Shown here: positions 6,372 through 28,558 of the stretch, one piece after another
Position numbering within the stretch: the stretch's first letter is position 1
Layout of the letters: the number at the start of each line of letters is the position of its first letter
NCBI GenBank assembly: GCA_016186145.1
Contig: JACPMF010000006.1
Location: 1,906-65,905 of the forward strand
Length of the DNA: 64,000 nt
Direction of reading: 5' to 3'
DNA from: Candidatus Sungiibacteriota bacterium
GTDB lineage: Bacteria; Patescibacteriota; Minisyncoccia; Sungbacterales; SURF-37
Position numbers and translations under genes: made by a program
The notes under the pieces: model-generated
What the model was told of the DNA's origin: nothing
The model's database searches: none
Seen by the model: the letters and a program-made list of their open reading frames with translations, nothing else

Positions 6372-9300
6372 ATGAACCCACTCAACGAAAATAATCTAAC
6401 AGAGCAATCACTCATTGAATGGCTTCAAGCTCAGGGTTATGAGTATGTTTATGGTCCAGCAATTGCTCCGGGACAACCTAGCGCAGAGCGTGAGGATTTT
6501 CGTGGTGTTGTACTTAAAAATCGTTTGCTTTCTGGTGTCCGTCGTTTCAATCCCCAGCTTCCAGCTGAACAAGCAGAACAAGTCGTGGATGATATCGCCG
6601 GATATCATAATGCTGACCTCGTTCTTGGCAACAAAGAAATGTTCACCCTCCTTACCGAGGGGGCGAAGAAGACGTGGCGAGAAAAGGGTGAGGAAAAGAC
6701 CGAAGTCGTGAAGTTGATTGACTTCACAAATGTGGACGCGAACGAATTCTTGATCGTCAACCAGTTTACAATCCAGGGTATCGAGAACGTTTGCCGCCTC
6801 GATGGCGTTGTTTTTGTAAACGGTCTTCCTCTTGGAGTCCTTGAACTCAAGAGTCCCGTACGTGAGGAAGCGACGATCGGTCAGGCGTACCGCGACATAG
6901 AATATTACAAAAGGGAAATACCGAGAATCTTCTTCTATAACCAAGTCCTTTGCTTATCTGACCTTACAGAAGCACGTCATGGAACGATATCTTCATCATG
7001 GGAGCGATATAGCGCGTGGAAAGGAATTGAATCAGAAACGGATGCACCTAAAGGAGCGGCGGAGCTTGAGGTTCTTGCTAGGGGTCTTTTTAACAAGGCG
7101 CGGCTTCTCGATGTAATTCAGAACTTTACGGTTTTTGAGGCCGACGGAGATGGTGACGCGGTGACGTACACAAAAAAATCTGCTTTGTACCATCAGTACT
7201 ACGGCGTAAATAAGACGATTCAAAGCACTGTGCATTCAGTGCTTGGAGAGCGGGAAAGAAAAATTGGTGTTTTCTGGCACACGCAGGGTTCGGGTAAGTC
7301 ACTCTCAATGGTTTTCTATGTGAATAAAACAAAGAGCATATCAGAGCTTAAAAGTCCCGCTTATGTATTTCTTAATGACCGCGAGGATCTCGACGACGCG
7401 CTATTTAAAACATTTAGTCGTACTGGGTATGGCACGCTCGCAAAACGCGCTTCGAGCATAAAAGATTTGAAAGATCGACTTTCCCACTTGGGAAGTGAAC
7501 TGATATTTACAACCATTCAGAAATTCCAAGAAGATCCTGACGCGAACGCCGTTCTCTCGGAAAGAGAAAATATTATTGTGCTTACTGATGAAGCACACCG
7601 CACGCAATACAGCATGCTTGCGGGTAATGTGCGACAGGCATTACCAAACGCGAGCTTTTTGGGCGTGACCGGAACTCCAATTTCACGGCATAATCGCAAC
7701 ACCATGCGTGTTTTTGGTGATGTAATAAGCGCATATAAGATTGGCCAGGCAGTAAAAGATAAAGCAACCGTCCCTATTTACTACGAGGGCCGTCTTGTTC
7801 CTCTCCATCTGGCTGATCAATTTGTTGATAGCAAACTCGACGAAATTCTTGGAGAAATTATCGTCGATGAAAAAGCAAAAGCCCGTAAAGAATGGGCCGT
7901 CCTTGAGGAGGTTGTAGGCGCGCCAAGCCGTATTGATCAAATATCAAAAGATATCGTTACTCATTTCAATAACCGTCCCATCGAGGGCAAAGCAATGGTA
8001 GTTACAATGAGTCGTCCTATCGCCGTCGCTATGTATCAAGCAATCAAAAAGATTTCCGGTACTCCAGAGTGCGCAGTGGTAATTTCCAAAATGGAGGACT
8101 TCCCGGGACAAATTCAAACTGAGCACGATGTGAAAAAACTCGAGAAGCGGTTTAAAAAGACGAATGACCCACTTCGTTTGGTTGTCGTCTGCGATATGTG
8201 GCTTACCGGATTTGATGTGCCGAGCATGCACACAATGTATCTCGATAAACCCCTTAAGAACCATGGGCTCATGCAAGCCATTGCTCGCGTGAACCGCGTC
8301 TACAAAGATAAGCCGGGTGGTTTAATTGTGGACTATATCGGTATTGCCGAACACTTAAAGAAAGCCTTGGCTATTTATGACTCTGATGTCCAAAAGGAAG
8401 CAATGATTCCTCTCGATGAAGTAATTAGTGAGATGAGAAAATTGCACGGAGAAATTTCTCGCTACTTTACGAATATCGACTTTTCTGGTTGGAGACAAAA
8501 GAAAGGCGTTGAACTGGTCAATCTCTTCCAGTCGGCAATGAATGAAGTTATCTCAGAGAATGGCCGGCTTTCTGATGATCGAAAAATGGCTTATATGGGT
8601 GGAGTTTCCAAACTTTCCCAGCTCCATGCCCTCGTCATGCCCGCAGAGGCGGCGATGAAGATTATAACCGATGTTCAATTCTTCCAGTCAATCCGCGAAG
8701 CAATCAACAAACAGACAGTGGTGCCGCATATTATCTTTCCCGAAGCAAAAGAGAGTGCCATCCGCAGCCTTATACAAGACGCGGTGCAAGCAGAAGGCGT
8801 AATTGACCTATTTACCAAAGAAGGCGAAGAGAAAAAAAGCATCTCCATCTTTGATAGTCGATTCGCAGAAGAAATAAAGAAGGTTAAATACCAAAATCTT
8901 GCCATTGATACGGTTCGCAAAATGCTTGATCAAGAAATAAAGGTACGCTCTCGTACAAACAAGGCGCGCTATGAAACGATGCTTACGCTTTTAACCGAAC
9001 TAATTGAGAAATACGAGAATAATGTTATTAGTTCGGCAGAGATCATTAAGCATCTACTCGAGATTGCCGACGAGATAAAGAAACTGGACGAAGAGAGCGA
9101 GGAACTCGGACTTTCCGAAGAGGAGATCGTCTTTTATGACACTCTTGCAGCCGATCCAGATCTCAAAGAAGCAGGGATTGATATCAAAGAATTCGTAAAG
9201 GAACTTACAAAACGTATTCGGCGCGACTTGGCTATTGATTGGACCAATAACGAAACTATCAAAGCGCGCATTCGCCAAAATGTTCGGTTGCTTTTGCTCC

Positions 9301-9401
9301 AGAAGGGCTTCGTCGAGCAGATGCAAACAGAACGACTAATAGAGTCGATATATCAGGAGACGGTGAGGGTGTACCGGGAATACTTACCAGTACCAGCGTA
9401 A
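6372..9401 (+). CDS. hsdR: type I restriction enzyme R subunit
   Basis: Walker A TQGSGKS and DEAH box LTDEAH. Length 1009 aa. Starts 5 nt after hsdM-S. Confidence 0.9.
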   Translation: MNPLNENNLTEQSLIEWLQAQGYEYVYGPAIAPGQPSAEREDFRGVVLKNRLLSGVRRFNPQLPAEQAEQVVDDIAGYHNADLVLGNKEMFTLLTEGAKKTWREKGEEKTEVVKLIDFTNVDANEFLIVNQFTIQGIENVCRLDGVVFVNGLPLGVLELKSPVREEATIGQAYRDIEYYKREIPRIFFYNQVLCLSDLTEARHGTISSSWERYSAWKGIESETDAPKGAAELEVLARGLFNKARLLDVIQNFTVFEADGDGDAVTYTKKSALYHQYYGVNKTIQSTVHSVLGERERKIGVFWHTQGSGKSLSMVFYVNKTKSISELKSPAYVFLNDREDLDDALFKTFSRTGYGTLAKRASSIKDLKDRLSHLGSELIFTTIQKFQEDPDANAVLSERENIIVLTDEAHRTQYSMLAGNVRQALPNASFLGVTGTPISRHNRNTMRVFGDVISAYKIGQAVKDKATVPIYYEGRLVPLHLADQFVDSKLDEILGEIIVDEKAKARKEWAVLEEVVGAPSRIDQISKDIVTHFNNRPIEGKAMVVTMSRPIAVAMYQAIKKISGTPECAVVISKMEDFPGQIQTEHDVKKLEKRFKKTNDPLRLVVVCDMWLTGFDVPSMHTMYLDKPLKNHGLMQAIARVNRVYKDKPGGLIVDYIGIAEHLKKALAIYDSDVQKEAMIPLDEVISEMRKLHGEISRYFTNIDFSGWRQKKGVELVNLFQSAMNEVISENGRLSDDRKMAYMGGVSKLSQLHALVMPAEAAMKIITDVQFFQSIREAINKQTVVPHIIFPEAKESAIRSLIQDAVQAEGVIDLFTKEGEEKKSISIFDSRFAEEIKKVKYQNLAIDTVRKMLDQEIKVRSRTNKARYETMLTLLTELIEKYENNVISSAEIIKHLLEIADEIKKLDEESEELGLSEEEIVFYDTLAADPDLKEAGIDIKEFVKELTKRIRRDLAIDWTNNETIKARIRQNVRLLLLQKGFVEQMQTERLIESIYQETVRVYREYLPVPA

Positions 9402-9405
9402 TTTT

Positions 9406-11961
9406 ATGGACAGTCGTATACCATTTGTAAAAGAAGTCGCCAAGGTCATCATTGAACGCCATGAAAAAGAGGGCGGCTCCTTTATTTTTGGTATATCCGG
9501 CAAGTGGGGTGAGGGTAAAACAACTTTTCTGGACGAATTGAAAAAAGTATTGGAAAAAGATAATTCATCATTCAAAGTTGTGGATATAAATCCATGGAAA
9601 TTTTCCGTCGACAGAATTTCTTTTTTGAGAAACTTCCTGCGAACTTTGCACGGAAAATGTGATTTGGGGGGTGACGATGATTTAAAACAGTTAGATGTTG
9701 ATACGTCAAAAAATGCAATCGATTGGGGACGATTTTTAAAATTTGTCGTATTGTTTGGAGTCATTTGTTGGGCTTTTACTTATGCCCCTCTTTTTAATTT
9801 TATAATTGGCCTTCCTGCGCAATGGCAATTTTTTCTAACCGTTTTGTTGCTCCCAATTGTCTTAGCAGCCGTTCAAGGCGTAGTAACTGTCCAAAAGACA
9901 GATCACGCTATAGTTACTTTAGACAAATTTGATGATCTACTTAAAAAAATATTAAAGAATTTTGAGATGGCGGGAAAGAAGATCATTGTTTTTGTCGATG
10001 ATTTGGACCGTGTAACTCCCGAAATGGCGAGAGATGTTCTCGATAATCTGCGGACGTTCTTTGATAAAAAAGAAATGACCTTCGTCGTAACAGGAGACCA
10101 TACAGTACTCGAAGGACATCTCGGGAGAAGTCTTCTTCCCGACGAAGAATCTTCTGCTGCTCAGCTAGAAGAAGGACGTAGATTTATGAAGAAAATCTTT
10201 AATGTTTATTGGCGACTTCCACTCCCAATCAAAAAGGGGATCCAAGACTTTATTGGAGGTGAGTTCAAAAAGAGGGACTCAGGGTTGAAAGAAGTGTTCT
10301 CTGAAGAGAGCCAGAAAATTACCTTCGCTACATATCTGGAGAAATATTTTGAAAGTAATTTCAGGCAAATAATCAGATTTTTAGACACTGTTCTTTTTAA
10401 TTTTCAAATCATAAAACAAAAAGCTGAAGGCGAAGACACACAAGCTCCTTACTTCAAGGATATGCTGACCAATCCGCTGCTTGTGATACGTATTCTTATA
10501 ATCCAAGAGTTGTGCGCCCCTCTTTTCGACAAAATGGTTAGAGATGTTTCCATTTTGCAGGGGCTTGAATACGCAGTCGAGAAAAAGGATTCTTCTAAAA
10601 CAACTGAGATCCTAGGACAAGGCAAGGATACGCTTTCTCCTAGTCAACGAGCTTTTATAGAAAAGTTTATTTATGAGGAACCACGTTTTTACAAAGGATC
10701 TCGCCTACAGGTCTTAAACCTTCAGCCCTATCTATCGTTAGCTGCTGACGTAAGCTTCGGCGATCAGCGTGGTCCGTCCAGCGAAGACTTTATTACGGCA
10801 CTTAACGGAGGAGATCCCAAGGGAGTAAAAAATGATCTCCTTTCAATGGGAGATGCAAAAGCAGAGGAGGGCGCAACTGCTTTGGTAACCCAGCTACCCC
10901 CCATGATTGATGTTACTCAAAAATTGGGCGCAATAAAAACACTTCTTGTCGCCTTGTCTGATTCACCCACCGAATTAACCATACATAAAATATTTGCTGA
11001 TCAATTAAGCAAGCTTGATTACCATTTTGTAAATAATGCTGCGTCTAATCTAAAAATGGAAGTTTTAAACCTTCTCTTTGGTTGGCTCGACCTGATTTCA
11101 GACCCCACTGTGATAAGTGCGTTTGAAAGTAAATTTACTCTGAAGGATATTACTGAATTTAATGCTGTAAATATTGAAGGAGCAGGTTCTTTCAAAAGTT
11201 TGGTTTTGGCGAAATGGATTAAGGAGTATTACTCTAAGCAAAAACCCGATGCCATAAACGCTATGGTTGCACACTTTCCAAAACTAAAAATTGAGAAAGT
11301 GAGGGAGCAAATGGATACTATTGATAAAATCTTGGTTACTGACCTTATTGGAGACTCCAACGCACTGTTAAGGGAGAACCGCTTTGCTTTGTTGAGAAAC
11401 TATACAACTAAAGGGGCTGAGATGCTCAAAGAAAATGTTCTGAACCAAGTTTCTGGTTTTGATCAAGGAATTACTGCGTGGGCTATCGCAAAAGCAAATG
11501 AGGAAAAAGCTCTGTGGACGATAGGTGAGCTTGAGACAAAAATCCTAGAAAAAATTGAGATTTCGGCGGACTTCAATGCCCTTAATCAGGGATTAAGGTT
11601 TGCTTTAACCAATAAAGTTGGATCCCCAGAGATGATTTGGCCCAAGCTTCTTCCTAAACACCAGAAAAGTATTCTTGAAAATTTACCAGCAATTATTGAT
11701 GACGCTTCACTTCAACCGATTTCACCACCACAAGCTTATGCAAATCAACTTATGGATGCAGTAGTAGCAAAAATTAAGACCATTCCGGAGGCTGACCAAG
11801 CCCGCTGGCTTAGTTATATAGTTAAAGGTAAATGGCCTTGGATTAATCTGGCTAAATACCCTATTACCAGTAAGTTTAGAAATATGAAGAAGTCTAAAAA
11901 CGAAGATCTTAAGAAGAATTTTGCAATTACTGAAGAAAGCTGGGTAGAGAAAAATGATTGA
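9406..11961 (+). CDS. KAP-family P-loop NTPase
   Basis: Walker A GKWGEGKTT and Walker B IIVFVDDLDR. Two TM helices inserted between them are the KAP hallmark. Starts 4 nt after hsdR. Confidence 0.8.
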   Translation: MDSRIPFVKEVAKVIIERHEKEGGSFIFGISGKWGEGKTTFLDELKKVLEKDNSSFKVVDINPWKFSVDRISFLRNFLRTLHGKCDLGGDDDLKQLDVDTSKNAIDWGRFLKFVVLFGVICWAFTYAPLFNFIIGLPAQWQFFLTVLLLPIVLAAVQGVVTVQKTDHAIVTLDKFDDLLKKILKNFEMAGKKIIVFVDDLDRVTPEMARDVLDNLRTFFDKKEMTFVVTGDHTVLEGHLGRSLLPDEESSAAQLEEGRRFMKKIFNVYWRLPLPIKKGIQDFIGGEFKKRDSGLKEVFSEESQKITFATYLEKYFESNFRQIIRFLDTVLFNFQIIKQKAEGEDTQAPYFKDMLTNPLLVIRILIIQELCAPLFDKMVRDVSILQGLEYAVEKKDSSKTTEILGQGKDTLSPSQRAFIEKFIYEEPRFYKGSRLQVLNLQPYLSLAADVSFGDQRGPSSEDFITALNGGDPKGVKNDLLSMGDAKAEEGATALVTQLPPMIDVTQKLGAIKTLLVALSDSPTELTIHKIFADQLSKLDYHFVNNAASNLKMEVLNLLFGWLDLISDPTVISAFESKFTLKDITEFNAVNIEGAGSFKSLVLAKWIKEYYSKQKPDAINAMVAHFPKLKIEKVREQMDTIDKILVTDLIGDSNALLRENRFALLRNYTTKGAEMLKENVLNQVSGFDQGITAWAIAKANEEKALWTIGELETKILEKIEISADFNALNQGLRFALTNKVGSPEMIWPKLLPKHQKSILENLPAIIDDASLQPISPPQAYANQLMDAVVAKIKTIPEADQARWLSYIVKGKWPWINLAKYPITSKFRNMKKSKNEDLKKNFAITEESWVEKND

Positions 11962-12084
11962 GTGGTCTATATCATAGCTGGAGGTTAATGAGCGATGGGG
12001 TAAGCTATCGACTAGGCATATTAAGCGGCCGGTTCCATGGTTCGTTACGAAAGAGAAGAGGATTTAATTAAACTGGTTACGTAG

Positions 12085-13488
12085 ATGTTTACGAGTGAGA
12101 ATTTTAAAAAAGTTGCTGATCTTGTCTATAAAGATTACTACAAATATCTCTTTAAGCACGCCGTATCTTTATTGCGACGTTCGAGACTTCCGTATCTTAG
12201 AAGGAATAATCTTTGGATAGGTGGAATTCAGCAAAACATGGTTAAATATAGACTCGGATTTGAAGAAACGGTCAGAAAGGGTAAGTCGATGGTCCCAAAA
12301 GACGACAAGGAGAAAAAAGCATTAGATATTGCACTGAGATCAAATAAAGAATTCCTCCGTGTCTTGAAGGATATTGGTGATGGTATTGCCTGGAGAAATC
12401 TAGACTATAGACGCTCATTAATTCGACTTATGTCGGAACATGCACCGACTGGCGATATTGGTCCGGATGCAGAGCGACTTATTTTGCTTTTAGGCGCTAG
12501 GAAAAAAGTAAGCGACCGAGTGATAATCAACGATTTGACCCACTGTCTAAAGATCGCCGATTTAACAGTTATCACATCAAAAAGTAGAATCTTTATTTAT
12601 GAAGTAAAGGCGCGAAAAGATAAGACCGAGATTATAGGTATATCAGAAATTTCAAGACGTATCCAAAAATATGGACAGGCAAGAAAGCAGGCTATTTCGC
12701 ACTGGATAGTTCAAGACGCTTTTATAAATAAAAAAGTTAAGACCCCCAAACTTGAAATAAGAATCGTAGATTTAGACTTTGTTTTTCACACTCACATCAG
12801 TAAGGTAAATCAATTGATTAAAGAGTCGGATAACAAGAACTTCTCCAACGCATTATTGGAAGGGGGATACCACATAGAAATTTGTGCGTTGGACAAGGTT
12901 TTTGAGAAATCAGGTCAGGAAAAAATTAAGGAACAATTGAATAAACTCAAGCCCTTTAATCCCCATAAAGAAGGGTGGTCCGATATGACACTTTGCATCT
13001 CAAACTATGATACCTTTTATTCGAGCATCAACGACAGATTTACGAATTTTACGCCGTATTCGGTTCTACCATTATCTGCTCGAAACTGCGTTAGGTTAAC
13101 GATGGGGCAACTTTATATTCGTATCTGCTTCGATTTTATGAAGTTAAAACAGAAATTCGAAGAAGCTGGATGGAGTGTCGAGGTTAAAGACTGGACATCA
13201 TGGGAATCTCAAAACAAGGAAACCATCAGAAAAATTAGGGAGGGTAAGGGTGGTTTCTTAGAGCATTCAGTTAATGAGTATATATTCAAAATTTCTAAAC
13301 AAGGCGAGAACGGTAGGTATACCCAGGATTTTCCGGTAAATCTAGTGATCATTATGCTCTCGGCTTTTTATACAACGGACTATCTCATTGGTATGGCCGA
13401 GGCTGTTTATCAAGATGCAAAATTAAACAGCCGAGGTGGTGGTTTATCAACGTTTAATTGTCTATATGAACGATGTATTTTAAGATGA
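12085..13488 (+). CDS. hypothetical protein with a PD-(D/E)XK-like nuclease motif
   Basis: 467 aa with low GC. LKIADLTVITSKSRIFIYEVKARKD fits the D...ExK core. Confidence 0.5.
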   Translation: MFTSENFKKVADLVYKDYYKYLFKHAVSLLRRSRLPYLRRNNLWIGGIQQNMVKYRLGFEETVRKGKSMVPKDDKEKKALDIALRSNKEFLRVLKDIGDGIAWRNLDYRRSLIRLMSEHAPTGDIGPDAERLILLLGARKKVSDRVIINDLTHCLKIADLTVITSKSRIFIYEVKARKDKTEIIGISEISRRIQKYGQARKQAISHWIVQDAFINKKVKTPKLEIRIVDLDFVFHTHISKVNQLIKESDNKNFSNALLEGGYHIEICALDKVFEKSGQEKIKEQLNKLKPFNPHKEGWSDMTLCISNYDTFYSSINDRFTNFTPYSVLPLSARNCVRLTMGQLYIRICFDFMKLKQKFEEAGWSVEVKDWTSWESQNKETIRKIREGKGGFLEHSVNEYIFKISKQGENGRYTQDFPVNLVIIMLSAFYTTDYLIGMAEAVYQDAKLNSRGGGLSTFNCLYERCILR

Positions 13489-13581
13489 TCCCTGCTCGCG
13501 GCGAACGCTGGTCCTATTCAGAATCAGAGGATTCGACAGCCGGCTGGCGTAGAGCATTGAACTGTAATTGAATAAAATCAT

Positions 13582-14235
13582 ATGCTAGACGCTGAAACAT
13601 TCAAAAAGTTTACAAGGCAAGCCAACCTTTCTCATCAGCAGTTTTGTGTTTGGTTCGCATTTAACAATGAGTATGCCAAACACCAGGATCGTTGGAACAA
13701 ATTTTATCCCGAAAGTTACTTTGCACCGGAAGATTTTGATAAGACGAAAGGATGTAAGTATAAAAACTTCTGGGGTGTAACTTTGGCCTCAACGCAGCAC
13801 GGCTGGATTCTGGGAATAGCAAGACTCTTTGATCCCGCATTTCATCCTTTTGATAAAAAACAGGAAAAACCTCGAATCTCTTTCGACTATATTCTTAGAA
13901 GACTTAATGATCAAAACTTGTCAGATAAACTGAGGCAAGAGTTAGATTGGCACAAAAATGTAATTGAATCTGTAAGAAAACATAGGGATAATGTTCTTGC
14001 GCATAACGATGCGAGCTTTGATTATAAAAAAATTGGGCCAGGAATTGAAAATCTTTTTGAATGGTTAGAAGATGTTATTTCAAGAATAAAAAAAACAGAG
14101 CCACACCTTAGTAGTTGTGGTGTAGTGAACGTTAAGTATCACGAGAAATTATCCCAATGTGGCGTAGATGAGGTTTTTGAAACTTTACTGCTTGGGGAAA
14201 AGCATGAGGTAGATGAGTCGAGGAGAACCTCATAA
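13582..14235 (+). CDS. hypothetical HEPN-like (Abi-type) protein
   Basis: 217 aa. RKHRDNVLAH fits the Rx4-6H HEPN motif (AbiD/F-like R..RN..AH). Confidence 0.4.
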   Translation: MLDAETFKKFTRQANLSHQQFCVWFAFNNEYAKHQDRWNKFYPESYFAPEDFDKTKGCKYKNFWGVTLASTQHGWILGIARLFDPAFHPFDKKQEKPRISFDYILRRLNDQNLSDKLRQELDWHKNVIESVRKHRDNVLAHNDASFDYKKIGPGIENLFEWLEDVISRIKKTEPHLSSCGVVNVKYHEKLSQCGVDEVFETLLLGEKHEVDESRRTS

Positions 14236-14250
14236 AAGCGATGATCATAT

Positions 14251-14655
14251 ATGTTTCCACTGGAAACTAAATCTTACGAAGCAAAATCGCTAGCCGACTC
14301 TTTGCTTGGCAATCCGTATCTCCAAGTTGAGTCCGCAGAACTCCCCGAGAGCGGAGGAGTTTATTTGTTCAGAAATGATGCAAATGAAATAGTATATATA
14401 GGCAAGGCGCGAAATCTAAAGAGAAGAATCCGCATTGACCACTTAAGCCAGGAACTGGGCGATACTATGAGTGCTTTTAGAAGAAGCATTAATAAGGTGC
14501 TTGGAATTCCTTTCGGCCATGAGATGAAAAGCTGGATATGCAGCAATTGCAAAATTTCTTTCATCCAGATAGATGATCCAGATATGCGCAGTTTGGTGGA
14601 GGCGCTTTTAATCGCTGCCGTCAGATCGAAGTCATTGCTCAATCATGATAGTTAG
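14251..14655 (+). CDS. GIY-YIG nuclease domain protein
   Basis: GVYLFRNDANEIVYIGKARNLKRRI. Lies 16 nt downstream of the HEPN-like gene. Confidence 0.7.
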   Translation: MFPLETKSYEAKSLADSLLGNPYLQVESAELPESGGVYLFRNDANEIVYIGKARNLKRRIRIDHLSQELGDTMSAFRRSINKVLGIPFGHEMKSWICSNCKISFIQIDDPDMRSLVEALLIAAVRSKSLLNHDS

Positions 14656-15056: not shown

Positions 15057-15953
15057 TTATTGGATTCCCATGGGGTTGCCAAATACCGGTACAAAGTTGG
15101 TTGGTTCTACTATGTTTCCTGTTTCCATTCCAATCGCTCGCATATCCGAAGAGTTCTCGATGCCGATGGCTATTCCATTCTCAGTACTATATGTATTGGC
15201 ATTTGGGTCTATATCAGCCTTAATCATCAATGTCTTGCTTAATCTCTCCGGTGTAACGAGCAGGAAATCCAAGCTAATCACGGCTTTGCCGTCTAAGAAA
15301 CTGCTCGCTGTTCCGATTCGGGTGCTGCCGTCAAAAATCTGAATGTTGAGAAGGTCGGCATCTGTCCCGCCGTTTCTTGTCAGCGTCAGTTGCTGGATTC
15401 CTACATTTTCGTTTCCAGCAGTAAAAGTAATCGCGCTAAAGTTATTCCATGCACTCCCGCGCTCATAGTAGGCAGACGGAGGTGTATTTGGAGAAAGCGC
15501 GACCGTAAGCGGTGCGGGAGTTTTTGGTTGAAGCGTTCCATGTACTTCCGTGTAGGCGATAACCATGCCGTTAGAATTTTTTGCCTCAACGCGAACCGTG
15601 AGCGGCACTTCGGTTTTGCTCCTCAAAACATTGGCGTCAAGAACGATGCCGAACCCGTATTTGCCCGCAGGGCGCAAGGACGGAAAAACTTGTTCCACAC
15701 CCTGCGATATTTGTTTGCTGTCAGTTGATGCGGAGACGATAAGTTGGCCGCCCAGTTTCAGGATGGGGCCGTCCCAAAACCCTTTAGCAATAGTGCCGCC
15801 GATAGGAAGCGTGTCTTGCTCTCCGGTAATTACGAATCCTTCAGAAAGCGAGGAAATCATTATTGGCCCGCCTGCCGCGCCCGTAAAAAGAGGTAGTAGC
15901 GAGATACCAATGATTATTGCGAATGATGTTTTCATATAAGTATATTGTAGCAT
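15057..15953 (-). CDS. secreted hypothetical protein
   Basis: 298 aa with an N-terminal signal peptide (SFAIIIGISLLPLFTGAAGG). Confidence 0.6.
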   Translation of the reverse strand: MLQYTYMKTSFAIIIGISLLPLFTGAAGGPIMISSLSEGFVITGEQDTLPIGGTIAKGFWDGPILKLGGQLIVSASTDSKQISQGVEQVFPSLRPAGKYGFGIVLDANVLRSKTEVPLTVRVEAKNSNGMVIAYTEVHGTLQPKTPAPLTVALSPNTPPSAYYERGSAWNNFSAITFTAGNENVGIQQLTLTRNGGTDADLLNIQIFDGSTRIGTASSFLDGKAVISLDFLLVTPERLSKTLMIKADIDPNANTYSTENGIAIGIENSSDMRAIGMETGNIVEPTNFVPVFGNPMGIQ

Positions 15954-15964
15954 ATTGAAAGGTT

Positions 15965-18061
15965 TTACTCTATTGTCAGCGGAACGGTTATTTGTCTCCC
16001 GTCTCTTAAGAGCAGACCAATAAAATATTCTCCGGAGGATATACTTTCTGGTATGAAAACGCCATTTATATGTGGTTCACAACTTGTTTTAAAAAAATAA
16101 TTAAGATTGTTTAAAGAAATTGTCATATTTAACACTATATCATCGAATCCCAAGGTGTTATCTCGAGAAAGTATTAATGCGGCGACTTCATCCTGTTGGA
16201 ACCCCGCGCTTGCACTTTGAAACCTTAAAAACCCTCCTTTTGCAACACTGTTGACACACAGTTTAAATTCCTTTACGACCACATTAGAAGGTTGATGCGC
16301 AGGCTGAAAAAGTATTTCCACCGCATCCGCTCGTGTTTTGAACTTTTTAATTTTTTTTAATAAATCATTTTTAGGTATGATTACAGGATCGTCATCGAGA
16401 TTGATCCATTGGTTGGATAATAACCTTGCGAGGGTTTCGATAGTAATATTTTCGTCTGATATTTCTGTGTGCGAAAATTTTGTCATGCCGCGGTCGTCTC
16501 TTTTTTCATGATTGACCACTTCGCTACGCCTCTCATTTTCTTCTTTAGTTAAACAAATAACTCCGAAAAGATAATGATTTGGAATTTGCTCATCGTGAAT
16601 TAAGTTGAAACTCGTATGATTACCTCTCACGCTAGAAAAACTCGGCTCGGGTAAATAGTCAAAAGTACTCCCATAGCTATTTATGTTGAAGTGAGAACAA
16701 AAATTGCTAACGTATAGCGCGTTATCTATGTCCCATTTTATTTCAGTAGTCGACGGGAAAGAAGATACCATGATGGGGCCATCGTTTCCGTTAGCCTTGA
16801 CCCCAACATAAGGATTGATAGGAGCACAAACATCCTGTGGTACGGCCACCTTCACGCCATCAGAAACTATTGTATGACTAGAAAAATCTCGCGCGTTATA
16901 ATGCTCTACCTTTAGAACGTATTCGTATGTTTTCCCAGTAACAATTGTTCCATCGCCGTATTCGGTTCCGTTCATTGAAGACAGACTGTGTATTTCTTTG
17001 CCATCTCGATATATAGTCTGGGACGCAATCAAATCGCCAGCCGGAATTGAGTCCAAATTCCACTCTAAGATAACAGTGGGAACAGCTCCTGTATTATCAG
17101 CTCCACGGTCACAATATGTTTTATAACGAAGATTTACCGTCTTTCCTTGCACCGCAATTGAAGATAGCTGTTGAGTTGCGGGTGGTTGTTGGTTTTTTTG
17201 CGGTTGTTCGTCTTCTTTTTGTTTTGTTTCTGTAGCTGGCCTTGTTACAATTTGAGTACTTTCCTTAGCAATTTCATGATGTTCCAACTCATTTGCTATA
17301 AGTTTTGCAATCTCCTCCGGAGCGGAGACACCAGTTTTTACTAATTTGTTCAACTCAACAAGACCAAACGCAAGTTTTGTTGCGGAAACTTTAAGGCCGA
17401 CTTCTTCGGAAATGGCTTCGGCAACTTTGCTGACAATCACATCTTTTGCCGCGTTTCTATCTGCGGTGGAAACGCTTTTGAATTGCGAGTCAAGCCAGTA
17501 ATTTAAGAGCATACTTTCAGCCCCCATCAAGGTGCTACCGAACTTTCCTCCAGCGGCCTTTCCCGCAAGCCCCGGAATACTTGCAGACAATTTTCCGATT
17601 TCATGCTCAATCTCTTGAGCTTTCTCTATGTTTCGGCTCCATACCTCCAACGCCGCGGAATCATAGAGATGCCAAAGGCGCTGGTAGGAAGTACTTCGTT
17701 CAATGTGCTCGTTGGCTATATCGGTATTACCGCTTATAAGAAACTTTTCGGCAATGCCGAGTTCCTGCAAAGCGTAATTTTTATAAGCGTGCGCGGAAAG
17801 ATAAAGTTCATTGTATTCGTCTAAGTGCGGCTGGCGTATTCCGAGAACAAACCATTTGCGCACGTTATTTAAAAACCCATCTGCTGGTTCAATGATTAAA
17901 TTAGGCGAGTCCGGCGTCTCAAGAATTATTTTTCTTGATTGCGAGATAACATTTTTGAGGTCCGGCATCTCGATGGCATTCGCTTGAGAAAAACTAAAGA
18001 TGAACCAGCCAGATATGACCAGCATTGTTGAAATTACAAATATGATTGGGTGTCTTTCCAT
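15965..18061 (-). CDS. large secreted or membrane-anchored hypothetical protein
   Basis: 698 aa. N-terminal TM/signal segment and a Q/P-rich linker. The segment around TVNLRYKTYCDRG..TYEYVLKVEHYN is a beta-sandwich, possibly fibronectin type III-like. Confidence 0.6.
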   Translation of the reverse strand: MERHPIIFVISTMLVISGWFIFSFSQANAIEMPDLKNVISQSRKIILETPDSPNLIIEPADGFLNNVRKWFVLGIRQPHLDEYNELYLSAHAYKNYALQELGIAEKFLISGNTDIANEHIERSTSYQRLWHLYDSAALEVWSRNIEKAQEIEHEIGKLSASIPGLAGKAAGGKFGSTLMGAESMLLNYWLDSQFKSVSTADRNAAKDVIVSKVAEAISEEVGLKVSATKLAFGLVELNKLVKTGVSAPEEIAKLIANELEHHEIAKESTQIVTRPATETKQKEDEQPQKNQQPPATQQLSSIAVQGKTVNLRYKTYCDRGADNTGAVPTVILEWNLDSIPAGDLIASQTIYRDGKEIHSLSSMNGTEYGDGTIVTGKTYEYVLKVEHYNARDFSSHTIVSDGVKVAVPQDVCAPINPYVGVKANGNDGPIMVSSFPSTTEIKWDIDNALYVSNFCSHFNINSYGSTFDYLPEPSFSSVRGNHTSFNLIHDEQIPNHYLFGVICLTKEENERRSEVVNHEKRDDRGMTKFSHTEISDENITIETLARLLSNQWINLDDDPVIIPKNDLLKKIKKFKTRADAVEILFQPAHQPSNVVVKEFKLCVNSVAKGGFLRFQSASAGFQQDEVAALILSRDNTLGFDDIVLNMTISLNNLNYFFKTSCEPHINGVFIPESISSGEYFIGLLLRDGRQITVPLTIE

Positions 18062-18314
18062 CGAAGTTAAAATAACATGATTTTGTGTTTAAGGTAAGTG
18101 CTTTCGCCTAACCAGCTATTTTCAACAGTTCTTGGTCCAACTCTTTTCCTAGTAGACGCGGCGGGACGCCTTTCGGTAAATGTGACACTACCAAGAACCT
18201 CTCCCGTGTCATGTTTGTAACATTTGCATGGGGCTACGGTTCGAATCCAAGAACCCCCCGTTTTTCGGATTCACACCACTAAGGTCTAAAACAAAGGGCC
18301 ACGCATGAACAAGA

Positions 18315-18342
18315 TAGACATCAAACAGCCTCTTTTTATAGT
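18315..18342. repeat. 28-bp direct repeat, copy 1 (tagacatcaaacagcctctttttatagt)
   Basis: Identical to 20477-20504. Confidence 0.9.
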
Positions 18343-18459
18343 ATGACTCGGACCCCCCATATTTAGACACAAAGGCCGGAAAGTATTCAGGGCGGAAAGC
18401 TGTTAACCTGTTCTGCTGCCCTTTTGTTTGCTTGTCTATTTTGATATAATTAGAGGAAT

Positions 18460-18699
18460 ATGGAAAACAAGTCCAAAACGATCATTATCGCGACAGTCGT
18501 GGTTCTTGTAGTAGCGGGGGCCGGCTTTTGGTATTGGTCAAAGAGCAAGCAGGCCCCGTCTTCAAAAGAAGCTTCTTCGTTAGGGGGCGAGATCTTTGAT
18601 AAAACGCAAAATCAACTTCAGGGCCAGGTTCCGGATACTAATCCCTTCAAAGACCAGAGGAATCCTTTAGATTTAATTTATCAAAACCCTTTTGAGTAA
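18460..18699 (+). CDS. small membrane protein
   Basis: 79 aa with one TM helix. Confidence 0.4.
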   Translation: MENKSKTIIIATVVVLVVAGAGFWYWSKSKQAPSSKEASSLGGEIFDKTQNQLQGQVPDTNPFKDQRNPLDLIYQNPFE

Positions 18700-18705
18700 T
18701 TAAAA

Positions 18706-20382
18706 ATGAAATTATTTTATTTCCCAAAATTCGTAATGCTCTCTTTCGCAATCATTGCGCTTTCGTTTTTTGCGGTCTTTTTCGTTACCTTTGCTCTGAA
18801 TGAAGTATCGGCACAAATTAGCAATATTACATACCCAGTAGCAGAGTTGGGGAGTTGTGTCGGCCAGCAAGAATGTGAAGCTTACTGCGGTGTGCCAAGC
18901 AATTATTCAAAATGCGCCGCATTTGCCCAAAAAAATAATTTAGCAATAGAAATACCCGACGATAAAAAAGCCGTTTTTGCGGCGATGCAAAAAGGAGAGA
19001 GTCCGGGCGGATGCAAGGATGAAGCATCTTGCCGCAATTATTGCGAAGATATTGACCACATAGAGGAATGCGTCAATTTTGTGGAAAAATTTAACTTGGC
19101 CAGTTCTGACGAGTTAAAGGAAATACGCCAGATGGCCGATGTTAAAAAAGCGGGTGTGGCGTTTCCGGGAAACTGCAAAACCAAAGAAAACTGTTTAAAG
19201 TATTGTGATAATTCCGATAACGCGGTTGTATGTATGGAATTTGCCCTGAAAGCCGGATTTATACCGAAAGCAGATACCGAGGCGGTTAGTAAAATTCTTC
19301 CTTATCTGAAGAGCGGCGGGAAATTACCCGGTGGGTGCACGACAAGGGAATCGTGCGACACATACTGTAATGACGACGCTCATGTTACTGAATGCATTAA
19401 CTTTGCCGAAAAAACCGGATTTGTATCAAAAGAGGATGCCGACATAGTGAGGAAGACCGGCGGTAAGAGTCCGGGAAATTGTAAATCGAAAGAGGCATGC
19501 GACAGTTACTGTAAGAGTGAAACGCATATTGATGAATGCGTGGACTTTGCGGTAAAAGCCGGTCTTATCTCAAAAGAAGACGCAGAAATGGCCAAAAGAT
19601 TCAAAATTACTTCCGGCCCCGGCGGATGCAAGAGCAAAGCCGATTGTGAAGCCTTCTGTGTCGTAAACCAGGATACTTGTTTCCAATTTGCCAAGGACCA
19701 TGGAATGCTTAGCGAAGAAGATCTCAAGAACATTGAGGAACAGAAAAAGTTCCTGGAATCGCTTGGTAAGGCCTCTCCGGAGTGGTTTGCCTGCATGGAG
19801 AAAGAGCTCGGTTCACCCTTTTTTGAACGATTTAAGGCTGGAAAATTAACACAAACAGAAGCCAAATCTCCAGCCCTGGAAAAAGCGCAGAGAAAATGCG
19901 GGGGCGAGATGGCCCAGGAAAAAGAGGCCGCCTGTTTGGCACTTTCCTGCTCCGAGTTTGAGTCCTGTCTAAAAGCTCTGCAGTCAAGCGGCGGAGACCA
20001 GGACGGAGAACAACAAGAAGAAGGCGCTCCGAATCCGGCAGTTAATGCGAAGGCCCAATCCTGCCAACAAGAAAAAATTAACGCGTGTTTGGCAAAATCG
20101 TGCAGTGAATTTGACGCTTGTGTAAATGCTCTTCAGCAAGGTGGTGGAAAACAGGGCGGACAACAGCAGCAGGGAGAGTCGGATCCGAAGCTAAAAGCAA
20201 AAATCCAGGCCTGTACTGATGAAAAAATTAACGCGTGTATTGCCAAACCATGCGGTGAATTTCAAGCCTGTCTTAATTCTTTAGGCGCTGGAGGTGAAGG
20301 CGGAGCACAACAGGGCGCACCGAATCCGGCTGTTCAGTCCAAGCTTATGACATGCTTTCCTCCGCCTCCTTCAGGTGAATGA
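18706..20382 (+). CDS. secreted Cys-rich tandem-repeat protein
   Basis: Signal/TM at the N-terminus. Six ~50 aa repeats of PGGCKxKExCxxYCxxxxHxxECxxFAxKxGxxSKED. Three C-terminal repeats of CxxEKINAC(L/I)AKxCxEFxACxNALQQGG. Confidence 0.7.
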   Translation: MKLFYFPKFVMLSFAIIALSFFAVFFVTFALNEVSAQISNITYPVAELGSCVGQQECEAYCGVPSNYSKCAAFAQKNNLAIEIPDDKKAVFAAMQKGESPGGCKDEASCRNYCEDIDHIEECVNFVEKFNLASSDELKEIRQMADVKKAGVAFPGNCKTKENCLKYCDNSDNAVVCMEFALKAGFIPKADTEAVSKILPYLKSGGKLPGGCTTRESCDTYCNDDAHVTECINFAEKTGFVSKEDADIVRKTGGKSPGNCKSKEACDSYCKSETHIDECVDFAVKAGLISKEDAEMAKRFKITSGPGGCKSKADCEAFCVVNQDTCFQFAKDHGMLSEEDLKNIEEQKKFLESLGKASPEWFACMEKELGSPFFERFKAGKLTQTEAKSPALEKAQRKCGGEMAQEKEAACLALSCSEFESCLKALQSSGGDQDGEQQEEGAPNPAVNAKAQSCQQEKINACLAKSCSEFDACVNALQQGGGKQGGQQQQGESDPKLKAKIQACTDEKINACIAKPCGEFQACLNSLGAGGEGGAQQGAPNPAVQSKLMTCFPPPPSGE

Positions 20383-20476
20383 GGGCCATCGAGCTCATTT
20401 ATAGGGCACTCATTTCTTACAACAATATCAAGGTTTCTTCTTAAATAACGGGGTTTTGATTTTTATAAAACGCCAG

Positions 20477-20504
20477 TAGACATCAAACAGCCTCTTTTTA
20501 TAGT
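20477..20504. repeat. 28-bp direct repeat, copy 2; here it forms part of a hairpin GTAGACA...TGTCTAC
   Basis: Identical to 18315-18342. Confidence 0.9.
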
Positions 20505-20646
20505 GTCTACTTTGTCTACTGAGGCCCCGCCTGCGCTAAAGCTACGGACGGGCAGGTCGGATTTTGTTCGGGGGGGACAGCACGCGTATGCTAAAGTCAG
20601 GTGACTGAGGTGCCCGCCCTTTGGGCGGCATCGCATACGACTCCTT

Positions 20647-20788
20647 TCCACCATGTCATACCGGCTGATGGTTCGACAAGCTCACCATAAAGCGCCGCTT
20701 GTCCTGTTTATGCCGAGCCGTGTCGAGGGAGGCGGAGTCGAAGGATATTCAAGAACGAAAAGTCCGCTGTAAAGTCAGCGACTTTTCG
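20647..20788 (+). repeat. R1 repeat copy C, split by a 77-bp insert (20669-20745) with inverted ends
   Basis: ccaccatgtcataccggctga | insert tggTTCGACaag..gaGTCGAAgga | tattcaagaacgaaaag, then hairpin CGCTG-TAAAGT-CAGCG and a T-run. Confidence 0.7.
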
Positions 20789-20965
20789 TCTGGACAGGGG
20801 AGCGCGTAAAATTTTCTCGAAGAAAATTATCAGTGCAAAAAGACTTATTTCATGATAAGCTTTTTATATTGTTTGCTTGCGATTTACCTTGTTAGAAATT
20901 TTGGATCAGCGGAATACGGTAAATAGCAGTGTTGAATTATATTATAGATGAACTTCTAGCGGAAT

Positions 20966-27565: not shown

Positions 27566-28558
27566 ATGTCTTTCCGCATTCTTTTGATCTTCGCCGCATT
27601 CGGCGGATTTCTCCTCGCGTTTTACATCCGGCATAAGAAACACGCGCGGGAGAAAATGGTCTGTCCGCTCGATTCCGATTGCGATGCGGTAGTCTACAGC
27701 AAATACGCGACTTTTCTTGGAATCCCCGTAGAAATACTCGGCCTTTTTTACTACGGCTTTATTGCGGTAAGTTACGCGATCTTTCTTGGCATCCCGTCTT
27801 TTGCTTCCACCTTGACCGTATTCGGGACGCTAGTGATAACGGCTGCAGCTTTTCTTTTTTCGCTCTACCTGACTTTTATCCAGGCGTTCGCCCTTAAACA
27901 GTGGTGCTCATGGTGTTTGACGTCTGCCGGTCTTTGCACCGTAATTTTTGGGACTGCGCTCATAAGTTCGGAATTTAGTTTTTTAGGGCTCCTTGCCCAG
28001 TATCGCGGCTTTATCCTAGCAGTGCATATTTTAGGCGTTGCTCTCGGCCTTGGCGGAGCAACGATTACCGATATTTTCTTTTTCAAGTTTTTAAAAGACT
28101 TCCGGATTTCAGACTGGGAAGCCGAAGTAATGCACACGCTATCCCAAGTAATTTGGTTTTCCCTTGCCATTTTGGTATTGGGCGGAATCGGCCTTTATCT
28201 CCCGGAGGCGCATGAGTTTAATCAGTCGCCGAAGTTTCTTTTAAAAATGGTTGTCGTTTCCGTATTGGTCGTAAACGGCGCGTTTCTCAACCTATTCATT
28301 GCTCCGAAGTTAATTCACATTTCCTTCGGCCAGAAGCACGACCATGAAGCCGGGGAACTTCGCCGTATTCGAAAATTTGCCTTCGCGCTGGGGGCAATTT
28401 CCATTGCCTCATGGTATTCGGCATTTCTACTCGGTTTTTTGCCAAGGGGCGTCTTTCCGGAATTTTGGACGCCTCTTTTCGGCTACCTTTTAATCGTGGG
28501 CGCGGGAGTAGCTACAAGCCAGCTTCTTGAACGGCTGTTTTCAAAAAAGGCGCCGTAA
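27566..28558 (+). CDS. VKOR-family thiol oxidoreductase with a C-terminal membrane extension
   Basis: Loop Cys pair CPLDSDC and active-site WCSWC in a TM helix. Multiple TM helices. Confidence 0.6.
   Translation: MSFRILLIFAAFGGFLLAFYIRHKKHAREKMVCPLDSDCDAVVYSKYATFLGIPVEILGLFYYGFIAVSYAIFLGIPSFASTLTVFGTLVITAAAFLFSLYLTFIQAFALKQWCSWCLTSAGLCTVIFGTALISSEFSFLGLLAQYRGFILAVHILGVALGLGGATITDIFFFKFLKDFRISDWEAEVMHTLSQVIWFSLAILVLGGIGLYLPEAHEFNQSPKFLLKMVVVSVLVVNGAFLNLFIAPKLIHISFGQKHDHEAGELRRIRKFAFALGAISIASWYSAFLLGFLPRGVFPEFWTPLFGYLLIVGAGVATSQLLERLFSKKAP

Follow-up and report, generated by a model that had tools for sequence, protein, structure and literature searches.

In a stretch of 64,000 nucleotides from contig JACPMF010000006.1 of a Candidatus Sungiibacteriota bacterium (assembly GCA_016186145.1), referred to as the window, we analysed a gene for a Cys-rich protein of tandem repeats that is predicted to be secreted, the array protein, together with a small gene lying directly upstream. 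Judged by sequence, the two form a two-gene operon of this Candidatus Sungbacteria genome. The array protein belongs to a large, unnamed and apparently Patescibacteria-restricted family, and its gene was found next to one for a small membrane protein, the partner, at 31/31 loci when the pairing was followed in both directions; the outer neighbours differed at every locus. The array is composed of two kinds of repeat, A-units and B-units, which according to the structure models are two new Cys-stapled helical modules. For the system as a whole we favour a disulfide-stapled rod of the cell surface or envelope that would work together with the partner, whose tail carries NPF motifs, and we regard this mechanism as evenly balanced between right and wrong. 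We are more confident of the narrower description, a secreted disulfide-rich helical repeat protein, and less so of the term adhesin.

A predicted secreted array of two cysteine-rich units

The array protein is 100% identical to the hypothetical protein HYW90_01530 of a Candidatus Sungbacteria metagenome-assembled genome (MAG). An earlier reading of the window (the original prediction) had described a secreted protein and proposed a signal-peptide prediction as a check. The N-terminus was found to be signal-like, with K2 and K8, a hydrophobic core at approximately residues 9–30 and then VSA/Q, and to be of the Sec and not the Tat type; cleavage would occur at VSA/Q. No other transmembrane (TM)-like segment was found in the array protein. 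Homologs retain the predicted mature N-terminus, I(T/S)YPVAELG. A signal-like N-terminus also occurs in 109 of 116 full-length homologs and an internal TM segment in none of them, and 96 of the 116 have an even number of Cys, like the window protein, all of which is in good agreement with secretion.

As predicted, six A-units of approximately 50 aa with four Cys each follow the signal peptide, joined by short Gly/Lys-rich junctions. Their first Cys residues are C51, C103, C157, C211, C259 and C308. The spacing C-x5-C-x3-C-x8-C occurs in five of the six, the last unit deviating with x6 before its last Cys. One His per unit had also been proposed. However, a His in the loop between the third and fourth Cys (C3 and C4) is present only in units 2, 4 and 5 (H118, H226 and H274), and family-wide in 298 of 620 canonical A-units of homologs (~48%), so that neither a His in every unit nor a His as conserved ligand could be upheld. 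The Cys residues are far more constant: all four are present in 1764 of 1766 distinct A-units, and their spacing is identical in 595/640.

The three B-units start at C398, C453 and C503. Units 2 and 3 fit exactly the motif CxxEKINACxAKxCxEFxAC that had been proposed for all three, while unit 1 is divergent (C398-x11-C410-x4-C415-x5-C421). The expected G/Q-rich linkers are located at residues 427–441, 479–492 and 528–538 and were modelled as disordered. At the C-terminus the conserved sequence KxMTCFPPPPSGE reads KLMTC(550)FPPPPSGE. Altogether, 36 of the 38 Cys residues sit in four-Cys sets.

An AlphaFold2 model of the full-length protein, based on an alignment of 34 sequences, was all-alpha with a mean predicted local distance difference test score (pLDDT) of 73.7; the A-units scored 80–92, the linkers <50, and the signal peptide was low. 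Structure prediction of one unit, a further check proposed originally, was carried out with 95 aligned units and yielded a confident three-helix A-unit (pLDDT 89.2, predicted template modelling score 0.67; helices at 11–18, 24–34 and 39–48). In this model, C1 is placed in the PGGC loop before helix 1, C2 and C3 on helix 1, and C4 on helix 2. The B-units were modelled as antiparallel two-helix hairpins with two Cys per helix. Profiles of A-units and B-units were not related according to hhalign (probability 0.5%). Foldseek returned no significant fold match: the best hit to the PDB had E = 0.32 for the whole array, with only generic TPR, Sel1 and HEAT proteins, and E = 4.7 for a single A-unit, and the best hit of the whole array to the viral structures of BFVD had E = 0.22, again with generic helical repeats only.

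Sequence searches gave a similar picture. No Pfam family matched the array protein at E ≤ 1, and the only NCBIfam match was BilQ, at 17.6 bits versus a cutoff of 125 and over 36 residues; the same sub-threshold match occurred in homologs. Neither the full protein nor the 95-unit A-unit profile had a usable match in Pfam, NCBIfam or the PDB. The possibility held against the original prediction, that the unit is a known domain, was thus not borne out in Pfam, NCBIfam, PDB sequences or Foldseek. Phage or plasmid copies of the gene were not detected by tblastn, and in the literature we found no description of the family, only general accounts of Cys-rich proteins and of MdbA/VKOR in the candidate phyla radiation (CPR).

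We found at least 500 homologs; wherever their source is named, it is a lineage of the Patescibacteria (Sung-, Uhr-, Wildermuth-, Yanofsky-, Azam-, Lloyd-, Blackburn-, Davies- and Giovannonibacteria). A few third-party annotation (TPA) MAGs with homologs are labelled Gammaproteobacteria or Saccharibacteria; for one off-lineage TPA MAG the label is probably unreliable. An exhaustive HMMER scan with the 95-unit profile against cluster representatives at 50% identity recovered 1,908 representatives at E ≤ 1e-3 and 1,091 at E ≤ 1e-30, with up to 13 units and up to 1,555 aa. Many relatives have a LamG/concanavalin-like domain (PF13385, E ~1e-23) between the signal peptide and the first A-unit, and one has two Kazal (protease-inhibitor) domains at its C-terminus. 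The C-termini of relatives are of several types. Some have a Pro-rich stretch and then a hydrophobic or amphipathic tail of approximately 12 residues with K or R as its last residue (for example, FLGAILRYLLK), some have small additional Cys modules, and others end directly after PPPPSG. No LPXTG or PEP motif was found in these tails and no NCBIfam sorting-signal model matched them; the window protein, which ends in PPPPSGE, likewise lacks the features of sortase- or exosortase-type sorting. From their sequences, the fullest family members appear to start with a signal peptide and a lectin-like head, to continue with a helical stalk and flexible linkers, and to end in a tail.

The units of the array are old and individualised, because unit i has unit i of other six-unit homologs as its best match in 171 of 198 comparisons. 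When gene length was compared across close homologs, as had been suggested, all proteins with ≥75% identity had six A-units, the one exception being P0006 with five, whose call is truncated at the N-terminus. The number of B-units is 2–4 among closer homologs (≥59% identity), and family-wide the ranges are 4–13 A-units and 0–5 B-units. From the conserved positions and the fixed number of A-units it would follow that the array is ancient, that its length is set within each lineage, and that remodelling in the course of evolution affected mainly its C-terminal end. In a second Sungbacteria MAG (locus L017, 5179–7571) the array gene is split into overlapping open reading frames (ORFs) of 404 and 417 aa with 3 and 4 A-units, which is a frameshift or an assembly error.

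The partner gene, a probable duplicated promoter and the cryptic tail

In the partner protein, a short basic N-terminus leads into a single TM helix with FWYW at its end; the tail that follows (LGGEIFDKTQNQLQGQVPDTNPFKDQRNPLDLIYQNPFE) is free of Cys, bears NPF/NPL motifs and terminates in NPFE. Seven orthologs are 67–78% identical and share invariant NPF, NPL and NPF motifs; 311 homologs were detected in total, all annotated as hypothetical. At all 21 loci found via the small protein, an ORF for an A-unit array follows immediately downstream after a gap of ≤14 nt, and the pairing persists at 36–53% small-protein identity and with arrays of 10–11 units. Conversely, the small gene is the next gene upstream at six of six close and four of four distant array loci. 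There the gaps are ≤53 nt except at locus L031 (231 nt), the usual spacing being 3–14 nt. The NCBI locus tags of the two families are adjacent as well. The topology of the partner is ambiguous, as basic residues occur on both sides of the TM helix. The positions of all features are compiled in Table 1.

Table 1. Features of the array locus and the VKOR-family gene in the window
Feature	Position	Strand	Remarks
Promoter-like site, copy 1	18315..18342	+	117 nt upstream of the small gene
Partner gene	18460..18699	+	79-aa single-pass membrane protein; 6 nt upstream of the array gene
Array gene ORF	18706..20382	+	558 aa, 38 Cys (6.8%)
Signal peptide, residues 1–36	18706..18813	+	predicted signal peptidase I site VSA/Q
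Six A-units, residues ~46–355	18841..19770	+	modelled as three-helix modules, 4 invariant Cys each
Helical middle region, residues ~356–385	19771..19860	+	conserved; lone conserved Cys363 (EWFACMEKELG)
Three B-units, linkers, C-terminal end and TGA stop	19861..20382	+	modelled as two-helix hairpins, C-x7/11-C-x4-C-x5-C
Cryptic in-frame continuation	20383..20448	+	GPSSSFIGHSFLTTISRFLLK and a stop; homologous to the hydrophobic C-terminal tail of relatives
Promoter-like site, copy 2	20477..20504	+	identical 28-mer, 29 nt past the stop of the cryptic tail
VKOR-family membrane protein	27566..28558	+	PF07884, E = 2e-21, 77 bits versus a cutoff of 27.5

Repeats at the DNA level and flanking 28-bp direct repeats had been taken as a sign of copy-number variation. 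Tandem Repeats Finder detected no tandem repeats in 18300–20800, even at a score of 30. Codon-aligned pairs of A-units are 41–63% identical in DNA with exact runs of ≤9 nt, and B-units 2 and 3 share 64% identity and one exact run of 18 nt. With no tandem repeats and unit DNA identities of 41–64%, there is no substrate for slippage or for recombination between units, and neither the repeats in the gene's DNA nor copy-number variation by means of them was confirmed.

The exact 28-bp repeat is real, with two copies in the window versus none expected from shuffled sequences; however, the copies bracket the two-gene unit and not the array gene alone. Beyond the 28 bp there is no similarity around them. 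Each copy coincides with a sigma70-like promoter-like site, TAGACA-16 nt-TATAGT (10/12 positions in a consensus scan), and the –35 and –10 hexamers mark both ends of the 28-mer exactly. At 32 related loci no copy of the 28-mer occurs even when five mismatches are allowed, and contigs of the JGI metagenomes lack it as well. Based on the sequence of the two sites we infer that the repeat is one promoter that was duplicated and not a recombination site, in place of the recombination signature originally proposed; the identical spacer suggests a recent duplication or an overlapping operator. An attachment (att) site, a target site duplication or the end of a mobile element was considered for the 28-mer and rejected in favour of a promoter, given only two copies, no extension and none in relatives. 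Minus-strand ORFs across the 28-mers were likewise dismissed: the copies lie in different frames, and ATG-started peptides, read by eye, are only 6 and 11 aa long.

The TGA stop of the array gene at 20380–20382 is followed by 21 in-frame codons whose product is clearly homologous to the tail of relatives, such as P0003 (...PPPPSGGPPSSFIENSFLAAILRFLLK) and P0042 (...PPPPSGERQPSSLIEHSLLGAMLRYLLK), the latter with Arg at the position of the window's stop. The split gene of L017 also keeps the full tail and has Arg where the window has TGA. Locus L003, which encodes P0007 (59% identical to the window protein), has the same SGE-TGA and then GPPSSFIWYSFLAAISRYLFK and a stop, while L001 and L016 read SGE-TGA-GPPSSRR and a stop, the tail being lost. 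Between the window and L003, DNA identity is 82% in the tail, 80% in the preceding 66 nt of coding sequence and 29% just past the stop of the tail; 7 nonsynonymous and 4 synonymous codon differences were counted. The continuation is probably the decaying remnant of an inherited nonsense mutation that made a tail-less form, and functional UGA read-through may be an alternative. An alternative code with UGA as Gly was rejected: TGA serves as an ordinary stop in this genome, where it ends 13 of 52 long ORFs, and table 11 leaves the long multi-domain genes unbroken. Selenocysteine was rejected by inference from the homologs, which have Gly or Arg, and not Cys, at this position.

Upstream of the two-gene unit, the window contains a defence-type cluster (6372–14655) with genes for type I HsdR, a KAP-family NTPase, an AbiU2-like HEPN protein and a GIY-YIG nuclease and an unannotated 467-aa ORF. 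It is followed by two adjacent unannotated minus-strand ORFs of 298 and 698 aa (15057–18061), divergent from the unit. The 698-aa product has a signal-like hydrophobic N-terminus and no Pfam match and is another candidate surface protein. At 18238–18260, the T-loop-like motif GGTTCGAATCC precedes a C-run and a T-run; the site was terminator-like in a scan and may be a tRNA remnant. No tRNA or RNA genes were detected in the flanks by ARAGORN or Rfam (gathering threshold and E ≤ 1). By eye, a real-looking tRNA lies at the corresponding upstream position at locus L001. Promoter copy 2 faces a 460-nt non-coding stretch (20505–20965) and then glycosyltransferase genes, three GT4 glycosyltransferases and a glycoside hydrolase being encoded downstream. 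The GC content is 58% at ~20500–20750 versus a background of ~44%, and a terminator-like hairpin is located at 20765–20790. This stretch could encode a small RNA or serve the glycosyltransferase operon as a long 5' leader; it had no Rfam match, a fold z-score of only –1.8, and no conservation in related loci. The defence, minus-strand, GT4 and hydrolase neighbours are not conserved beside the unit at the other loci examined.

Disulfides, metal and other explanations

Two helix-stapling disulfides per unit are favoured because of Sec export, the even Cys count, the position of Cys on packed helices and the non-conserved His. The array protein shares the sequence features of Sec-secreted disulfide-bonded proteins (signal peptide, no TM segment, even Cys count, VKOR in the same window), the disulfides themselves being predicted. 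The VKOR-family protein, encoded 7 kb from the array gene and a predicted component of extracytoplasmic disulfide formation in this genome, carries a loop Cys pair (C33/C39) and the active site C113-SW-C116; of its 330 aa, approximately 200 are extra, hydrophobic-rich C-terminal residues, and no fused thioredoxin domain was detected. CPR genomes are reportedly enriched in MdbA-like oxidoreductases, often adjacent to VKOR (PMC6744442). Together with the near-invariance of the four Cys, these findings are in line with the original idea of a Cys-stabilised extracellular repeat array. At two related loci, genes for a DsbA/thioredoxin-like protein (L004, 5257–5640, ~1.1 kb downstream of the array gene) and an AhpC/redoxin protein (L005, 5160–5627, downstream of the array gene) may be thiol-redox neighbours or lie there by chance.

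According to the mechanism we favour, the array protein would be exported via Sec and its Cys then oxidised to two disulfides per unit by a pathway of the MdbA/VKOR type. The disulfides would staple the helices into a rigid, protease-resistant extracellular rod that belongs to the cell envelope or surface and is either structural or adhesive. The partner would act stoichiometrically with the rod, most simply as membrane tether or assembly partner via its NPF-motif tail. The array of sister genes would have a LamG lectin-like head on its N-terminal side and a hydrophobic tail on its C-terminal side, which makes a head-stalk-anchor layout; in the window gene the head is absent and the tail would be cut by the TGA, giving a tail-less product. 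A role as adhesin or binding protein is plausible from the LamG lectin-like domain and the C-terminal hydrophobic tail of some relatives. Several observations weigh against this mechanism. The window protein has neither LamG head nor anchor, so that the case for an adhesin comes from relatives only; the NPF tail of the partner could be cytoplasmic, which would exclude direct tethering; no correlated loss of Cys was found in A-units from which connectivity could be read; and many hosts come from anoxic groundwater, where disulfides are less obviously useful. A more specific version appears unlikely to us: the array and its NPF-motif partner would be an undescribed, Patescibacteria-specific two-component surface system in which the A-unit is a new fold-level peptide-binding module that docks NPF/NPL. 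Such docking would tether the array to the membrane of wall-poor, host-dependent cells as an envelope or attachment structure for episymbiotic life, and leaky UGA read-through might, as a possible twist, yield released and anchored isoforms from one gene in this sub-lineage, where a UGA precedes an anchor tail that is still intact.

The four strictly invariant Cys per ~50-aa unit, the 36 of 38 Cys in four-Cys sets, the C3–C4 loop His in about half of the units and the anoxic groundwater origin of many MAGs would also suit an extracellular metal-binding array, in which the Cys of each unit, with His in some, hold Zn, Fe, Cu or another thiophilic metal in order to sequester, store or sense it at the cell surface. 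Four invariant Cys recall Zn(Cys)4 or metallothionein-like sites, but in Zn(Cys)4 sites the Cys form CxxC-pair knuckles, which the x5/x3/x8 spacing with C2, C3 and C4 placed on helices does not resemble, and the His is not conserved. Cys so spaced on helices resemble the helix-stapling disulfides of CHCH, alpha-hairpinin and saposin-type proteins. The signal is Sec and not Tat, and therefore no cofactor would be loaded before export; VKOR is present; and AlphaFold2 folded the unit confidently without metal. We consider a metal array improbable. Somewhat less probable still is a polyprotein precursor or secreted effector, in which the array would be cut into ~50-aa disulfide-rich peptides, or would serve uncut as a toxin or inhibitor directed at hosts or competitors, with the small membrane protein as immunity protein or export helper. 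Precursors of this kind are known from plant alpha-hairpinins and from the secreted cysteine-rich repeat proteins (SCREPs) of venoms, and in bacteriocin-immunity pairs a secreted protein is encoded beside a small membrane protein, an arrangement that the locus resembles. The modular Cys-rich units with short Gly/Lys-rich junctions and the Kazal domains of one relative fit this as well, and many Patescibacteria are thought to be episymbionts (PMC4736985). However, the units are individualised, conserved in position and not interchangeable, and between them we saw no conserved processing motif, dibasic or other. Moreover, the partner lies upstream and its tail shows more conservation than immunity proteins typically do, and at the loci examined neither a peptidase nor an ABC exporter is a conserved neighbour of the pair.

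In our best reading the array is not a phase-variable adhesin. A phase- or copy-number-variable adhesin, with recombination at in-gene or flanking 28-bp repeats altering the number of units or excising the gene, was retained at a very small residual probability, in view of the exact repeat that brackets the two-gene cassette, the unit numbers that vary family-wide, the different contexts of the cassette in different genomes, and a protein identity of 79–81% between differently named candidate phyla, a hint of horizontal transfer. The in-gene version is largely refuted by the diverged unit DNA, the positional orthology of the units and the six A-units retained in close homologs. For the flanking version, the promoter-like character of the 28-mer and its absence from relatives count against recombination, and no recombinase is encoded between the copies. 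Near-identical DNA repeats and A-unit polymorphism in close homologs, as in contingency genes, were not found.

Comparison with known systems and significance

Like the array protein, the Hcp proteins of Helicobacter are secreted bacterial tandem alpha-helical units stapled by disulfides, which for the array are predicted. However, the Hcp unit is a 36-aa helix-turn-helix Sel1-like repeat (SLR) with one disulfide, in contrast to the ~50-aa three-helix A-unit with four Cys, and Hcp has no obligate membrane partner, whereas the array has one. No Pfam Sel1 or TPR model matched the array protein, and its best SLR/TPR hits in Foldseek had E = 0.85–2 with a TM-score of 0.1. The modelled B-unit is similar to CHCH proteins and plant alpha-hairpinins in its two antiparallel helices with two Cys each, which would permit two nested inter-helix disulfides. 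Its motif is C-x7-C ... C-x5-C in place of twin CX9C or CX3C, with a predicted connectivity, and it occurs in a bacterial secreted array, in contrast to peptides of mitochondria or plants; searches revealed no homology.

Large Cys-rich extracellular proteins of Peribacteria, for which a role in attachment or rigidity was proposed (Anantharaman et al. 2016; PMC4736985), come from the same superphylum and share with the array a signal peptide and a Cys content of about 7%. Those proteins have ~1,655 aa and weak similarity to Myxococcus Cys-rich repeats and FG-GAP (PMC4736985), whereas the array family has its own A-units and B-units, matched no such model and has a conserved small-protein partner. 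With head-stalk-anchor adhesins of Gram-positive bacteria (LPXTG-anchored MSCRAMM and stalk-repeat proteins), relatives of the array share a layout in which the signal peptide is followed by a LamG head, a stalk of repeats, a flexible Pro/Gly/Gln stretch and finally a hydrophobic tail that ends in a basic residue. In contrast to these adhesins, the array family has no LPXTG or NCBIfam sorting signal, and its stalk is all-alpha and disulfide-rich, as predicted, and not Ig-like; the window protein itself has no head and no translated anchor.

Patescibacteria (CPR) represent a large share of bacterial diversity. Most of them are believed to live in attachment to other cells, and to our knowledge their surface molecules have hardly been described. 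As a kind, secreted surface proteins with Cys-rich repeats are already known. The locus also calls for caution, as exact short repeats around a gene may merely be duplicated promoters. The A-unit, however, is present in approximately 1,900 clusters at 50% identity and yet has no name, Pfam model or structural relative, and its invariable pairing with an NPF-motif membrane protein defines a widespread and testable two-gene system for the study of CPR surface biology. It could be used for new domain models of A-unit, B-unit and partner, for structure determination, and for studies of the CPR envelope and of attachment.

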